A stretch of DNA of 4,522 nucleotides, taken from IMG/VR virus record IMGVR_UViG_2597490224_000009, positions 1 to 4,522 of that record; one strand, given 5' to 3'. Each line of letters starts with the position of its first letter. Within the stretch, counting starts at the first letter, position 1. The position numbers and the translations under genes are program-made. The notes under the pieces are model-generated. The model worked only from the letters and a program-made list of their open reading frames with translations. It did no database searches and was not told where the DNA came from. Shown here one piece after another: positions 1 to 4,522 of this stretch. The stretch comes from a virus (lineage: Duplodnaviria > Heunggongvirae > Uroviricota > Caudoviricetes).

Positions 1-16
1 CAGTACGCGGTTCATT

Positions 17-154
17 TCACCACCAGCGTATCTGACCGATGAAATAACCAGAGGCCATAATCACAAACACCAGCCAGATAAGAATGAACTTCCAGGTGGA
101 TAATTTTTCAGCCATCACTCGAATCTCCCGAATCAGTTTGCTAAAATCAAACAC
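17..154 (-). CDS. hypothetical small membrane peptide (~45 aa, single predicted TM helix); alternative ATG start at 115 would give 32 aa
   Basis: Read by hand from the minus strand (too short for the ORF track). GTG at 154 is preceded by AAGGAG with a 5-nt spacer; an in-frame ATG at 115 is preceded by GGGAG. Translation ...MAEKLSTWKFILIWLVFVIMASGYFIGQIRWW then TGA at 17-19: a charged N-terminal stretch followed by a ~20-residue hydrophobic segment. Lies just downstream of the terminator that follows the endolysin. Confidence 0.3.
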   Translation of the reverse strand: MFDFSKLIREIRVMAEKLSTWKFILIWLVFVIMASGYFIGQIRWW

Positions 155-190
155 ACTTTCTCCTTTGACTTTTCCGGAGTCAGGAAACAC

Positions 191-223
191 AAAACCCCGC
201 TTGGTGCCAACAAACGGGGTTTT
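191..223. terminator. putative bidirectional intrinsic terminator
   Basis: Inverted repeat AAAACCCCG (191-199) / CGGGGTTTT (215-223) with a GC core, A-run on one side and T-run on the other, so a T-tract follows the stem on both strands. The loop is large (15 nt), hence moderate confidence. Sits ~90 nt downstream of the endolysin stop. Confidence 0.5.
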
Positions 224-313
224 TACTTTTATTCACTTACGTTTCGCCACTTCGCAGGATTTCATGTTATCCGCCCGCGTGGCCATGCCTTATTTTTCAG
301 CAAAATATTCTGC

Positions 314-847
314 TTATCTGTCGATACCCCAGCACGCCAGCGCGCTCTCCTGGTCACGACGGGATACCTGACCGTAGCAGTTGTTTGAACGAATACGGCA
401 GTCTCTGCCACCGTCCTTAATCCACCAGCGAATCGCCTCACACGCTCCCCTGCGATCACCTGCATTAATTCGTTTATAAAACGTCGACGGGAAACACTTA
501 CCGGGACCAATGTTGTACGGACAGAATGACGCGATCCCCGCTTTCTGGGGTTCGCTCAATGGCACTTTGATGTTTTTCTCCACCCATGCCAGCGCCTTAT
601 CACGCTCAATGGCGTTGACCTGGTCGCATTTTTCCTTCGACAGTTTCATACCGGGAAAAACGGGTTTTCCATCCACCATCGTGGCCCCCCGACAGATGGT
701 CCAGTTGCCGGAACCATCGCGGTATGCCGTAGTGTGGTTACCCTCTTTTTCATCCAGAAACTGGTCAAGTATCTGAGGAGCTGATGCGCCTGCTCCAATC
801 AGCGCCAGAACTGCAGCTGACAGGCCGTATTTGATTTTTGCGTTCAT
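314..847 (-). CDS. phage endolysin, GH24 lysozyme with N-terminal SAR (signal-arrest-release) domain; RrrQ / phage 21 R-like
   Basis: 177-aa ORF. The N-terminus YGLSAAVLALIGAGASAP is a Gly/Ala-rich weakly hydrophobic segment typical of SAR endolysins. It is followed by the T4-lysozyme-type catalytic spacing E-x8-D-x5-T (DEKEGNHTTAYRDGSGNWTICRGAT). Length and sequence match my recollection of E. coli Qin-prophage RrrQ (177 aa). Confidence 0.9.
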   Translation of the reverse strand: MNAKIKYGLSAAVLALIGAGASAPQILDQFLDEKEGNHTTAYRDGSGNWTICRGATMVDGKPVFPGMKLSKEKCDQVNAIERDKALAWVEKNIKVPLSEPQKAGIASFCPYNIGPGKCFPSTFYKRINAGDRRGACEAIRWWIKDGGRDCRIRSNNCYGQVSRRDQESALACWGIDR

Positions 848-952
848 GGATATTTATCAGGATTTATCGGTTTCTGAACCCTGGATATGTTTATCTGTCC
901 CGGCCTGTTGAATCAGGCGGGGAAAAGGTAAAGACAATCAAGAGGATTATTT

Positions 953-1225
953 ATGGACAATAGCACCATTTCTCTACAGGAGTTGCTCGACTGCATTTCC
1001 AGGCTTCGGGATGATGTAAATGCCCTCACTGTTGCATTTTCACATCTGGCCTTATCAATTCCCAGGGAGCAAATGCTGCCAACGCTGGCATCCATTCATT
1101 TTGAATCACGCAACCCCAAATGGTCCCAGGAACAACAAAATTCTTTCAAGTGGCTGGCGGCATTGCTGGAAGAAAATTATGCTGGCAAAACTACCATTTC
1201 GGCGGAGTCTTCAGGGAACCAGTAA
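953..1225 (+). CDS. hypothetical protein (90 aa), antisense to the lysis genes, no recognisable family
   Basis: Complete ORF with a well-placed RBS (AAGAGGA ending 7 nt before ATG 953) and TAA stop at 1223-1225. No TM segment or signal peptide; predicted soluble, probably helical. Lies in a ~330-bp segment present beside endolysin copy 1 but absent from the equivalent position beside copy 2. Confidence 0.5.
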   Translation: MDNSTISLQELLDCISRLRDDVNALTVAFSHLALSIPREQMLPTLASIHFESRNPKWSQEQQNSFKWLAALLEENYAGKTTISAESSGNQ

Positions 1226-1325
1226 TCCTTCCCGGTAGCTTTCCTTTGTAGGTTATCCATACATTCTGCGCCTCTAAAATTACGGGGCGCTTTTCCGGCG
1301 ACTGCTCATCCCCTTCACATAACCC
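1197..1325. repeat. direct repeat copy A (~129 bp, near-identical to 1824-1952)
   Basis: Hand alignment: 1197-1325 matches 1824-1952 with about 3 mismatches, all near the left end. Copy A runs directly into the N gap, so its true extent is unknown. Confidence 0.85.
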
Positions 1326-1335
1326 NNNNNNNNNN
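1326..1335. other. assembly/scaffold gap (run of 10 N)
   Basis: Ten consecutive n characters in the sequence; the 185-aa track ORF 1191-1748 reads through it (XXXX). Confidence 0.95.
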
Positions 1336-1748
1336 GCCTCACATGCACCCTTACGATCACCGGCATTCAGCCGCTTATAAAACGTCGACGGGAAACACTT
1401 ACCAGGGCCAATGTTATAGGGACAGAATGACGCGATACCGGCTTTCTGTGGCTCGGTCAGTGGAACTTTTATATTGCGCTCCACCCATGCCAGCGCCTTA
1501 TCCCGCTCAATGGCGTTAACCTGGGCGCATTTTTCCTTCGACAGTTTCATTCCCGGAATAACAGGTTTACCGTCCACCATCGTTGCTCCCCGACAGATGG
1601 TCCATATGCCGGAGCCATCGCGGTATGCAGTGATGTGATTCCCCTCTTTTTCATCCAGAAACTGATCGAGAATGTCAGGCGCGGGCGCACCGACGGCAAT
1701 CAGTGCCAGAACAGCAGCCGACAGGCTGTATCTGATTTTTACGTTCAT
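1336..1748 (-). CDS. phage SAR endolysin, second copy; 3' end (C-terminal ~40 aa) missing at the N gap
   Basis: N-terminal 135 aa of the track ORF 1191-1748 align to the 314-847 endolysin with 15 substitutions (~89% identity), keeping the SAR segment and the E/D/T catalytic spacing. The part of the track ORF below the gap (1191-1325) is repeat copy A, not endolysin. Confidence 0.85.
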
Positions 1749-1811
1749 GGATATTTATCAGGATTTATCGGTTTCTGCCCACGGACAGGTTTATCTGTTC
1801 CGGTCAGTGAC

Positions 1812-2162
1812 TTAAGGTTGTGATTCCGGAGGAGTCTTCAGAGAACCAGTAATTCTTCCCGGTAGCTTTCCTTTGTAGGTTATCCATACATTCTGCGCCT
1901 CTAAAATTACGGGGCGCTTTTCCGGCGACTGCTCATCCCCTTCACATAACCCGGCAGCAACATCCAGGAAGACCTGTCTGATGCTCATTCTGGCTGCTGC
2001 CTCATAAAACTCCAGCGCGGCACCTTCAACACGGTCCAGCGAGATGTCCAGGTCAAAAATTTCACCGTCAAAGCGTTTTTTGTCCCGTAACGCTAAAGTT
2101 ACCGTAACTTTATTCTCAAAATTGCGGATCCCTTTCACAATCAGTTCATAGTTTTGAGTCAT
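1812..2162 (-). CDS. conserved lambdoid lysis-cassette protein between holin and endolysin (YdfR-like); C-terminal ~45 aa lie inside the repeat and may not be native
   Basis: 116-aa ORF with RBS GGGGAGAG ~8 nt upstream of ATG 2162, starting 4 nt after the holin stop. The holin / small protein / endolysin order matches my recollection of essQ-ydfR-rrrQ in the Qin prophage. The family assignment is from memory and unverified. Confidence 0.6.
   Translation of the reverse strand: MTQNYELIVKGIRNFENKVTVTLALRDKKRFDGEIFDLDISLDRVEGAALEFYEAAARMSIRQVFLDVAAGLCEGDEQSPEKRPVILEAQNVWITYKGKLPGRITGSLKTPPESQP
1824..1952. repeat. direct repeat copy B (~129 bp, near-identical to 1197-1325); overlaps the 3' end of CDS 1812-2162
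   Basis: See repeat copy A. Confidence 0.85.
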
Positions 2163-2166
2163 TGAA

Positions 2167-2382
2167 TTACTCTCCCCGTGCAGCCTTACGCTTGTCTTCT
2201 CTGATTTTGAAGTACAGATTTGTCAGATAAGTCAGGAAGCCCAGAACCAGACTCCCCAGTACACCAATCGCAGCCCACTGTGACGGACTGACCTGATCAA
2301 GCCACTGTAAAAACCAGTAGCCAGCACTGCCTGCGGAGGTGCCATAGGCGACACCCGTTGTTAACTTATCCATGGATTTCAT
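2167..2382 (-). CDS. class II holin (pinholin), phage 21 S21 / EssD-EssQ family, with dual-start motif
   Basis: 71-aa product [71 protein letters not shown]: two TM segments, a charged C-terminal tail, and Met1-Lys-Ser-Met4 dual start as in S21 (holin/antiholin). RBS GAGGTG ~8 nt upstream. The track's 92-aa version (to 2445) adds 21 residues that overlap the upstream terminator and is not preferred. Confidence 0.9.
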
Positions 2383-2417
2383 AACCCCACCTCGCAGATG
2401 CGGGTGCTGTGTAATGG

Positions 2418-2443
2418 AAATAAAAAGGCCACCTGACGTGGCC
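2418..2443 (-). terminator. putative rho-independent terminator between the methyltransferase and the holin
   Basis: Minus strand reads GGCCAC-GTCAG-GTGGCC (6-bp GC-rich stem, 5-nt loop; plus 2427-2443) followed at once by TTTTTATTT (complement of 2418-2426). Begins 6 nt after the methyltransferase stop codon. Confidence 0.5.
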
Positions 2444-2449
2444 ACCAGA

Positions 2450-3502
2450 TTATTTCCCCACCAGCTCGTTTATCTCTTTCACTGTCTGGTTAAACCGCTC
2501 TGACTCAAGCTCAACACCTAAGGCCCGACGCCCCAGCGCCATTGCTGCTTTTATTGTGGAACCGGATCCCATAAAAAAATCAGCAACCAGATCACCAGGT
2601 CGACTACTGGCATTGATTATTTGCCTGAGCATATCCGCCGGTTTCTCACACGGATGTTTACCCGGGTAGAACTGAACGGGTTTATGCATCCAGACATCGG
2701 AATAAGGCACGGAGACTGATACGGAGAAATAGCGCCGGAGAGATTTAAACTCATCCAGCAATTCAGAATATTTGCGATTCAGTGAATCATAAGATGCCAC
2801 CAGCTGGTGGTGTGGTTGTTCCAGTTGTTGTTCCTGAAACTTCTCTGCCGCTATACGGGAAAACAGTGCCTGTAACTTCCGATAGTCAGCCTCATTCGGC
2901 AACTGCCACTGACTGGCACCAAACCAGTGGGAAACCATATTTTTCTTACCTGTGGCTTCGGCAATTTGTTTTGCCGTTATACCCAGTTCGGCACGAGCAT
3001 CCCTGAAATACGATATCAGCGGTGCCATTATGTGCTGTTTGAGTTCCCTTTCTTTTGCCGCATAGCCGTCACTTTTGCCGCGATATGGCCCCTGGTAATG
3101 TTCAGCAAACAGAACGCGCTCTGTGGCAGGAAAATATGCGCGCAGACTTTCTTTATTACACCCATTCCAACGTCCGGACGGCTTCGCCCAGATGATATGG
3201 TTAAGCACGTTGAAACGTTCACGCATCATGATCTCAATATCAGATGCCAGGCGATGCCCACAGAACAGGTAAAGGCTTCCGGCAGGTTTTAACACCCGCC
3301 AGAACTGGGCCAGACAGTGGTCCAGCCACTTAAGGTAATCTTCGTCCCCTTTCCACTGATTGTCCCAACCGTTGGGTTTCACCTTGAAGTACGGCGGATC
3401 GGTAACAATCAGGTCAATGGAATCATCAGGCAGGGACTGAATAAAATGCAGGCAATCAGCGTTGATTAAATCAACACTGTTTATTTTTACAGTATTTTTC
3501 AT
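2450..3502 (-). CDS. DNA methyltransferase, beta-class amino-MTase (N6-adenine or N4-cytosine), apparently orphan
   Basis: 350-aa ORF with motif IV DPPY near the N-terminus (IVTDPPYF) and the AdoMet-binding motif I FxGxG near the C-terminus (DFFMGSGST). The IV-then-I order defines the beta class. No restriction endonuclease candidate adjoins it in the window. Weak SD. Confidence 0.9.
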
Positions 3503-3534
3503 GGATCAGTAAGCGTAACTCTGGTAGGCTCACT

Positions 3535-3554
3535 CTGCTTTTGCGCTAAAGCAG
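3535..3554. promoter_or_regulatory. inverted repeat CTGCTTT-N6-AAAGCAG upstream of the methyltransferase start (candidate operator or RNA hairpin)
   Basis: Perfect 7-bp inverted repeat with a 6-nt spacer, 33-52 nt upstream of the MTase ATG, within a 150-nt non-coding interval (3503-3652). Confidence 0.2.
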
Positions 3555-3652
3555 TGGGCCGTGGTTCGCTTGTGACCAGTAAGCATGAGCGAATGGCTGG
3601 CAGGTGCTACCAACACCCACCAGCCGCCCATTTTCACAGCAGGAAACCGCCA

Positions 3653-3880
3653 TTACTGGCAGCGTCTGAATTTATTCCCGTATCCGCCGTTATCCTTCGC
3701 CAGACCCGCCAGAACTAACTGAGTCAGTATTAACTGGCACCGGGCTTCGCTTACTCCGGTAGTTCTCGTCATCATGCGTGGCGTTACCCACTTGTCAGCA
3801 GGTAAGAAATGAAGGACTGCGGCGGCGGTTTCTGTCATATCTTGCTGTTTTAGCATGTCTTTTTCCCTTCTGGTTAACAT
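3653..3880 (-). CDS. hypothetical small protein (75 aa), possibly helix-turn-helix DNA-binding
   Basis: Complete ORF ATG 3880 to TAA 3653-3655, with an in-frame stop 18 codons upstream so the start cannot extend far. The segment TRTTGVSEARCQLILTQLVLAGLA resembles an HTH recognition helix. Weak SD; family not recognised. Confidence 0.4.
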   Translation of the reverse strand: MLTRREKDMLKQQDMTETAAAVLHFLPADKWVTPRMMTRTTGVSEARCQLILTQLVLAGLAKDNGGYGNKFRRCQ

Positions 3881-4064
3881 GACATACCAATAACTCTTGT
3901 CTAAAAAGCCAGCAAGATAAAAGGTCAGTATTCACGACCACCAGCGTGTTTACTGTACTGCACCAAGTTTACAGGTACAAAAAAACCGCTCAGCGGCGGG
4001 TTTAAGTTGTGTGGCGAAGTAACCACTCTTAACAGCATATTTGATTTTTTACGATTGTAAACGG

Positions 4065-4092
4065 TTGATTATTCATCTCCAATAAAAATAAT
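4065..4092 (+). promoter_or_regulatory. candidate sigma-70 promoter for the lipoprotein gene
   Basis: TTGATT (4065-4070), 16-bp spacer, AATAAT (4087-4092; 5/6 match to TATAAT), about 35 nt upstream of ATG 4127 in an AT-rich interval. Pattern match only. Confidence 0.3.
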
Positions 4093-4126
4093 TGTGTAGG
4101 TATGCCCTTAACAATGGATAAGAAAC

Positions 4127-4522
4127 ATGAATAAAATGACTGTACTATTACTTAGCGCAACTATCATTTCAGGTTGTACTTCTTCCGTACCATTGATAAA
4201 AAAAACTCAATCAGGAAAACCTGAGGGGGTTTATCAAAATACGACAAAAGATAAAGTCAAAGATGCCCTTGTGAATTACTGCAATAGTAGAGGGTTGATA
4301 ATTTACAACGCTGATAACAGCAGTGTTATATGTGGTAAAGAACTGGAAGGCGGGTCTGCTGTTTTTGGACAAATGTTAATCGGCAATGCCTATTCAACAA
4401 CCCCGGTATCAAAAGTCAGATTTACTATCGCTCAAGTTAATAACGATACAAAAGTGTGGGCCGATATGTGGATGGAAACTCAAATGGCAATGGGGCAAGT
4501 ACAACAAATGGCTATAACAGAC
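4127..4522 (+). CDS. putative lipoprotein, 5' partial view (132 codons, continues beyond the window)
   Basis: Hand-read ORF, absent from the track because it has no stop inside the window. N-terminus MNKMTVLLLSATIISGC is a classical lipoprotein signal peptide with lipobox ISG-C; the +2 residue is Thr, not Asp, which suggests outer-membrane sorting. The gene is visibly more AT-rich than the rest of the window. Confidence 0.7.
   Translation, partial: MNKMTVLLLSATIISGCTSSVPLIKKTQSGKPEGVYQNTTKDKVKDALVNYCNSRGLIIYNADNSSVICGKELEGGSAVFGQMLIGNAYSTTPVSKVRFTIAQVNNDTKVWADMWMETQMAMGQVQQMAITD

Follow-up and report, generated by a model that had tools for sequence, protein, structure and literature searches.

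A strand-reversed gene of family PHROG 2411 is a real, selected, and dispensable accessory of lambdoid prophage lysis cassettes

Introduction

What is a 90-codon open reading frame (ORF-90) doing inside a phage lysis cassette on the strand opposite to the late genes around it? The question is raised by a 4,522-nucleotide stretch of caudoviricete DNA (IMG/VR record IMGVR_UViG_2597490224_000009, positions 1 to 4,522; "the window" throughout), in which a first-pass annotation made from the letters alone saw two endolysin copies in one late operon, one of them accompanied by a plus strand gene that its paralogue lacked. That annotation took the extra gene for a moron, and named lysis timing, superinfection exclusion, anti-defence, and host modulation as candidate roles. 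The ATG-initiated frame is indeed present in the open reading frame list, and it does run against the late genes: those recognizable in the window by the open reading frame list and Pfam, holin, DUF1327, and lysozyme among them, are all on the minus strand, and ORF-90 is on the plus strand (Table 1).

Table 1. Coordinates of features in the window and in comparison loci
Feature	Position	Strand	Basis and remarks
SAR-type phage lysozyme (endolysin), cassette allele 1, complete	314-847	-	Pfam Phage_lysozyme, E 4e-24; RefSeq "lysozyme/rrrQ"
Leader between lysozyme start and allele-specific segment	848-903		Also in copy 2 (1749 to ~1807) and in the island copy
Weak candidate promoter	863-891	+	By eye, 7/12, below scan threshold; -35 TTTATC, 17-nt spacer, -10 TATGTT
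GC-rich stem-loop, CCCGGCCTG-TTGAAT-CAGGCGGGG	899-923		30 nt upstream of ATG, left edge of allele-specific segment
Allele-specific segment	904-1195		Left boundary 904-917 uncertain; global alignment of 780-1325 with 1681-1952; L002 compared with L003
Shine-Dalgarno AAGAGG	940-945	+	7 nt upstream of ATG; read from sequence
ORF-90, 90-aa gene, ATG start, stop included	953-1225	+	Open reading frame list; PHROG; RefSeq CDS
DUF1327/YdfR 3' end, allele 1, last 135 nt, cut by gap	1191-1325	-	Repeat and RefSeq
10-N scaffold gap between contigs of different cassette alleles	1326-1335		Sequence; continuity tests
Lysozyme of cassette allele 2, 3' part missing at contig end	1336-1748	-	Repeat; 100% identical to L003
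ORF-less lysozyme-ydfR junction, allele 2	1749-1822		Alignment of the two copies
DUF1327/YdfR family gene, allele 2, complete, 116 aa	1812-2162	-	Pfam DUF1327, E 5e-42
P21-type class II holin	2170-2385	-	Pfam Phage_holin_2_1, E 3e-35
DNA methyltransferase	2450-3502	-	Late region
Genes for 62-63-aa partner proteins	L011 5239-5430; L019 5248-5436	-	Convergent with ORF-90 homologue
Chromosomal homologues (X)	L010 5001-5282; L021 4001-4285; L027 4001-4276		Between dinI and bssS

The tandem endolysins are a scaffold join

The repeats that suggested a duplication are present as described, 1196-1325 matching 1823-1952 at 97% identity and 435-734 matching 1336-1635 at 86%, but the contrast between a module and its paralogue in one operon was produced by the 10-N scaffold join. 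Specifically, i) each of the two contigs flanking the N-run ends within a gene, at the border of what the two alleles have in common; ii) the ORF-less cassette of strain MS21324 (L003) matches window 1336-2400 at 100% identity; iii) window 760-1325 is 100% identical to E. coli ATCC 11775 (L001), which past position 1325 continues as window 1953 onward (193/200) and not as window 1336 onward (85/300); and iv) where complete genomes match the whole window best, the match covers 3589 or 3313 bp, which is the window less a single repeat period (627 or 901 bp, respectively) and leaves one lysozyme per cassette, as in every cassette of the complete genomes inspected. A true tandem endolysin duplication is ruled out by these one-lysozyme spans together with the continuity test in ATCC 11775. 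The window is an ORF-bearing and an ORF-less cassette strung together, not a pair of paralogues in one operon. Mis-scaffolding, which the first-pass annotation had itself listed as a possible refutation, thus does away with the tandem layout but leaves the ORF-90 segment untouched inside a single contig. The practical lesson is to check N-runs first, before making comparisons within scaffolded windows.

Several other features of the window deserve mention. Intrinsic-terminator-like hairpins with U-runs are found on the late strand at 2427-2443(-), between the methyltransferase and holin genes, and at 3985-3997(-), upstream of a 75-aa ORF; both are probably sites of Q-antitermination read-through. 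The 75-aa ORF itself (3653-3880(-)) is labeled hypothetical in related prophages, and its winged-helix matches (MarR_2, E 0.058; TrmB, E 0.17) are far under the cut-offs. Lysozyme copy 1 is followed by a small ORF at 16-190(-) that has a transmembrane (TM) segment (45 aa in RefSeq, 57 aa from a GTG start); ahead of this ORF lies a hairpin, 191-223, with a 13-bp stem and U/A runs on both sides. Finally, a second plus strand gene of the late region, 4128-4522(+), lies between the Q side and the methyltransferase and runs past the window end; known in RefSeq as a 447-nt gene for a hypothetical protein (WP_001038608.1), it begins MNKMTVLLLSATIISGC, a lipobox-like signal, has a 10/12 promoter match at 4108-4137, and is a candidate lipoprotein moron.

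ORF-90 is a real and selected gene

Although the first-pass annotation could recognize no family, ORF-90 is already catalogued, without functional annotation. It matches phrog_2411 over its full length (E 5.5e-55, residues 1-90 on profile positions 1-90 of 90), is identical to RefSeq WP_001351274.1 ("hypothetical protein"), is an annotated CDS in ATCC 11775, and shares with these entries the gene order holin-YdfR-ORF-lysozyme. Homologues from Citrobacter, from another lambdoid phage (L019), from plasmids, and from Serratia match the same profile with E values of 1.5e-35 to 4.5e-10. What stands of the earlier statement is that no characterized homologue was found: PHROG 2411 is a family with no assigned function, structure, or literature; all 126 homologues are annotated as hypothetical; and no relevant literature was found in searches on phrog_2411, on ORF-90 accessions and locus tags, on YdfR/DUF1327, or on lysis-cassette morons.

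Selection acts on the protein. Among six alleles (the window, CFT073, ZH193, island, plasmid, and Citrobacter copies, with 55% to 90% protein identity), Nei-Gojobori dN/dS in the non-saturated comparisons is 0.15-0.41 in the annotated frame as against 1.2-1.9 in the two shifted frames, and variants of ORF-90 carry in-frame deletions of 2, 4, 7, and 8 codons. Some variants are frameshifted or truncated, so the constraint is not universal, and a few such variants are to be expected of a dispensable gene. The Shine-Dalgarno sequence reported earlier is there, and the CFT073, ZH193, pathogenicity island (PAI), Serratia, and Sodalis homologues have purine-rich motifs of the GAGG/GGAG type at that spacing as well. 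At least 25 complete genomes match the ORF-90 segment with 100% identity over 566 bp. We conclude that ORF-90 is a real, selected, and dispensable accessory gene of lambdoid prophages belonging to family PHROG 2411.

A 60-aa ORF on the other strand, 913-1095(-), was considered and rejected: its start codon is lost in 3 of the 4 other alleles checked, and two of these also have a premature stop.

Two alleles of the lysis cassette

The polymorphism that had been predicted among related prophages exists. Of 5426 complete E. coli genomes, 1131 carry the ORF-90 segment (coverage of at least 80%) and 992 carry the specific ORF-less junction; prophages of UTME-12 (L002) and MS21324 (L003) are otherwise collinear, the former reading holin - ydfR - ORF(+) - lysozyme and the latter holin - ydfR - lysozyme. 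ORF-90 is a dispensable part of the cassette, present in roughly half of the cassettes with these flanks.

The dimensions given earlier for the shared and extra sequence need correction. The leader common to both alleles upstream of the lysozyme start extends from 848 to about 903/916 and measures about 56-69 bp rather than 29 bp; the allele-specific segment (about 904/917 to 1195) measures about 280-290 bp rather than 330 bp, and is replaced in copy 2 by about 15-19 bp (about 1804/1808-1822). The right flank common to both alleles begins at 1196, a few bases at most from the ydfR stop codon. It includes the terminal 30 nt of ORF-90 (1196-1225), and the terminal 35 nt of ORF-90 (1191-1225) run antisense to the 3' end of ydfR.

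That ORF-90 was inserted, as the first-pass annotation had it, is unproven. Salmonella prophages keep a 63-aa partner gene (see below), and the ORF-90 homologue on the opposite strand is reduced to a 3' remnant of about 23 codons; in one Salmonella enterica prophage these C-terminal codons, QQNSFKHLAKELEERLGSSITIL, are found at L029 3158-3230(-) beside the 63-aa partner, and the rest of the homologue has been replaced by an 83-aa late-strand gene. The Salmonella remnant clearly records a loss, so an insertion cannot be taken as established for the E. coli allele.

Expression signals and an upstream hairpin

Consensus scans of the plus strand found neither a sigma-70 promoter for ORF-90 at 9/12 or better nor an intrinsic terminator after its stop codon. 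The nearest weak plus strand hairpin in ATCC 11775 lies about 490 nt downstream of ORF-90, and with no terminator to stop it, a transcript would continue in antisense into ydfR and on to the holin gene. The weak candidate promoter of Table 1 would place the transcript start at the GC-rich stem-loop. Its -10 region reads TGGATATGTT in all ORF-bearing alleles, including the island copy, and CGGACAGGTT in the ORF-less allele, the -10 hexamer TATGTT of the former corresponding to ACAGGT in the latter. We treat this putative promoter as a lead only.

For the stem-loop, RNA folding of 885-955 gives -24.2 kcal/mol (z -4.3); the mismatched position in the stem turns into an A-U pair in ZH193; and the Citrobacter and L019 homologues each have an upstream stem of their own (8 bp with a 6-nt loop), in which two compensatory pairs differ. 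Since no U-run follows it on either strand, the hairpin is not a canonical terminator, and Rfam has no match in the ORF-90 region.

A small, acidic, and helical protein

ORF-90 encodes a 10.1 kDa acidic protein (pI 4.95), and its homologues are acidic throughout. The earlier finding that it lacks TM and signal features holds up: it has no hydrophobic segment (maximum Kyte-Doolittle value over 19 residues, 0.83) and no TM, SAR, or lipoprotein signal, and an AlphaFold (AF2) model built on a 44-sequence alignment (pLDDT 82.5) predicts a soluble three-helix protein (a long helix 8-35, then helices 38-52 and 59-77) with a disordered C-terminal tail (80-90). The most conserved residues are E10, L11, I15, L25, A28, F29, Y31, L32, F34, E51, F65, L68, and A69, although the window allele has H31 for Y31 and L34 for F34; the family motif, ELL..I..L...L..AFSYLAF ... 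ES.N ... F..LA, is retained down to 25% identity.

The profile and structure searches that had been recommended as a check yielded no characterized homologue. Pfam has no match for the ORF-90 protein or for 13 family members; NCBIfam offers only a chance-level match to Mip (NF041858; 12.6 bits, E 0.081, against a curated cut-off of 50 bits); no functional match to a lysis-protein family was found in Pfam, NCBIfam, or PHROG; no PDB sequence profile was matched below E 0.69; and searches of PDB folds and BFVD found no structural relative. PADLOC-DB, which covers defence systems and not anti-defence proteins, has no match for the window protein, and among the 13 family members PDC-M71B and PDC-M60B are each weakly matched by one (E 0.005 and 0.03).

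The family is found across the Enterobacterales

The ORF-90 family is Enterobacterales-wide, but close homologues are confined to E. coli, Shigella, and E. albertii, with the model uropathogens UTI89, CFT073, S88, and APEC O1 and the E. coli type strain among the carriers. Deposited phage genomes with ORF-90 are only three, Chlobot, vB_EcoS-783R2, and phiSTEC1575-Stx2k; in Chlobot and 783R2, whose annotation was checked, ORF-90 adjoins ydfR as it does in E. coli. Profile searches add a Citrobacter homologue at 55% identity.

Mobile elements carry the gene as well. On about 74 E. coli plasmids, mostly conjugative, the homologue (about 65% identity) follows the genes for a TibC-like heptosyltransferase and for an AIDA/TibA-type autotransporter, and one further plasmid has an identical prophage-type ORF-90 adjoining ydfR. 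A pathogenicity-island copy, divergent from iha, retains the lysozyme leader and about 8 starting codons of the lysozyme gene, and was thus derived from a cassette fragment. No significant YdfR, lysozyme, or holin remnants were found by tblastn around the plasmid and island copies. On plasmid pE21845IncF (L008 1-6267) and some 70 other E. coli plasmids, the homologue lies about 300 bp past the heptosyltransferase-autotransporter operon; the IncF conjugative plasmids that bear the homologue of about 65% identity come mostly from livestock isolates.

More distant relatives (25-38% identity) occur in many species of Serratia and in Sodalis, Chania, Gibbsiella, Chimaeribacter, and Acerihabitans. 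In Serratia marcescens, S. odorifera, and at least one further lineage, the homologue (X) occupies a fixed chromosomal site, pyrC-dinI-X-bssS-solA; in E. coli K-12, dinI and bssS are adjacent, and no X is known between them. The only conserved element in an alignment of the dinI-X intergenic region of Serratia-like loci is the dinI terminator, and inspection by eye revealed no LexA box ahead of any homologue. The Sodalis and metagenome homologues are solitary genes among unrelated neighbors. Upstream of these two (L015, about 4940-4990; L016, about 4960-5000) there is a conserved promoter-like TTTAA(T/C) followed by TG-TAT(G/C)GT, and the spacer holds a palindrome, CACTA-N6-TAGTG, that resembles an operator site.

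A recurrent convergent partner

ORF-90 is convergent with ydfR. In the RefSeq annotation of ATCC 11775, YdfR (5432-5776(-)) overlaps the ORF-90 CDS (5194-5466(+)) by 35 nt. Similar arrangements recur at a distance: a Citrobacter freundii prophage has its homologue upstream of the holin, and lambdoid phage L019 has one beside the terminase genes, in both cases antisense to the late genes and overlapping the 3' end of a minus strand gene for a protein of 62-63 aa. The two small partner proteins are homologous to each other (E 5e-6), and share with YdfR the C-terminal ITGSL..P motif and a second, collinear weak match. Three diverged phage lineages therefore have an ORF-90 homologue convergent with a YdfR or YdfR-like late gene, although its position relative to the holin varies. 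The neighbors DUF1327/YdfR (PF07041) and ORF-90 are alike in sharing a locus and a recurrent convergent 3' overlap, and differ in lying on opposite strands, in lacking homology, and in that YdfR occurs without ORF-90 in 992 genomes. The pairing could tie ORF-90 function to the late region.

Likeness to morons and to DinI

The classical lambdoid morons are lambda bor and lom and the morons of HK97 and HK022 as defined by Juhala and Hendrix. ORF-90 resembles them in that it is an extra gene between genes adjacent in a related prophage (compare UTME-12 with MS21324), is dispensable, and has an orientation that bars expression from the late operon; this much of the moron claim stands. It differs in that i) there is no recognizable promoter-gene-terminator unit, neither a consensus promoter nor a terminator having been found; ii) its 3' end overlaps a late neighbor, ydfR; iii) its product is predicted to be cytoplasmic and is not an envelope protein; and iv) its base composition is not distinct (45.5% GC for the segment, compared with 47.0% for ydfR, 47.7% for the window, and 53.2% for the lysozyme gene). 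ORF-90 is best described as a moron-like accessory gene lacking a recognizable promoter-terminator unit of the classical kind.

Another comparison is with small host modulators of stress or SOS responses that phages also carry, such as DinI (PF06183). Like DinI, ORF-90 encodes a small, acidic, apparently cytoplasmic protein with both chromosomal orthologues and phage copies; the chromosomal orthologue directly adjoins dinI and bssS, and a DinI-family gene is also found in the Citrobacter prophage. ORF-90 resembles, however, neither DinI nor BssS in sequence or in fold, its homologues have no LexA box detectable by eye, and adjacency is no evidence of a common pathway.

What might ORF-90 do?

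We give about even chances to the reading that ORF-90, as a real accessory gene expressed on its own account and probably in the lysogen, encodes a small modulator of a conserved host partner, and is probably not part of the lysis machinery. As ORF-90 cannot be translated from the late mRNA, it would have to be expressed from a weak promoter of its own, probably in the lysogen and without dependence on Q-driven late transcription. The protein would most likely be a small cytoplasmic binding or modulator protein, and since Serratia and allied genera keep the orthologues as fixed genes of the chromosome, its partner would be conserved across the Enterobacterales. ORF-90 may then represent a small host regulator copied into phages, as with phage-borne dinI. 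No sequence or structure relatives that point to a binding partner emerged from the PDB, BFVD, or profile searches.

The location of ORF-90 inside the lysis cassette, and the convergent 3' overlap with a DUF1327-like late gene near the holin or lysozyme in three diverged lineages, might suggest instead that ORF-90, or the pair of ORF-90 and the YdfR-like gene, tunes holin or endolysin action or the timing of lysis. We hold this to be unlikely. The orientation excludes co-translation from the late mRNA; the protein has no TM or SAR segment; and homologues are fixed at dinI-X-bssS and are found on plasmids and islands without lysis genes. Taken together, these points make a direct role in lysis improbable. 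Moreover, YdfR cassettes function without ORF-90 in 992 genomes, and the Salmonella prophages have lost it. Lysis timing is accordingly the least likely of the roles listed in the first-pass annotation, given the homologues in chromosomes, plasmids, and islands that lack lysis genes.

It is likewise unlikely that ORF-90 acts in anti-defence or superinfection exclusion, for example as a small acidic protein that inhibits a host defence or an incoming phage. A small acidic protein encoded at a variable, moron-like site in temperate phages, and spread to plasmids and islands, would fit such a role. However, the fixed-site orthologues in Serratia and related genera resemble housekeeping or stress genes and not genes engaged in an arms race, dN/dS stays well under 1 and gives no hint of diversifying selection, and the window protein has no match in PADLOC, a collection of defence systems and not of anti-defence proteins.

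Distinctly improbable in our estimation is a composite scenario in which ORF-90 and the DUF1327/YdfR-like gene form an old, convergent, 3'-overlapping module that moves as a unit through lambdoid lysis regions with a conserved hairpin before each ORF-90; ORF-90 expressed in the lysogen (as protein, antisense transcript, or both) would restrain or time the downstream late genes; and the phage gene would be a domesticated copy of the small host stress protein encoded between dinI and bssS in Serratia.

Very improbable is a function chiefly at the RNA level, in which the plus strand transcript through 953-1225 would serve as antisense RNA, or act by transcriptional interference, to damp leaky late-operon read-through into the endolysin gene or the ydfR 3' end, the peptide being secondary. 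The convergent overlap with ydfR, the missing terminator and resulting antisense run into ydfR and the holin gene, and the structured hairpin conserved upstream of ORF-90 are all consistent with this; but selection is at the protein level, which makes an RNA-only role unlikely, the amino acid motif is kept down to 25% identity in contexts that offer no antisense target, the scans found no strong promoter, and Rfam has no match. Last, the notion that ORF-90 is a chance ORF or an assembly artefact, which the scaffold gap in the window and its artefactual duplicated layout might encourage, is effectively refuted by the location of the segment within one contig, its identity to sequence in complete genomes, the coding-selection tests, and the homologues in other genera.

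Significance

ORF-90 is present in about one fifth of complete E. coli genomes and is under selection there. If it is indeed a modulator of a conserved host protein, expressed in the lysogen, it would be a common lysogenic-conversion factor, and the Serratia orthologues beside dinI and bssS would provide a simple genetic system for finding its target. Should the composite scenario hold, in which ORF-90 paired with its YdfR-like partner restrains or times the late genes, it would amount to a level of control over lysis or lysogeny that has not been described before.
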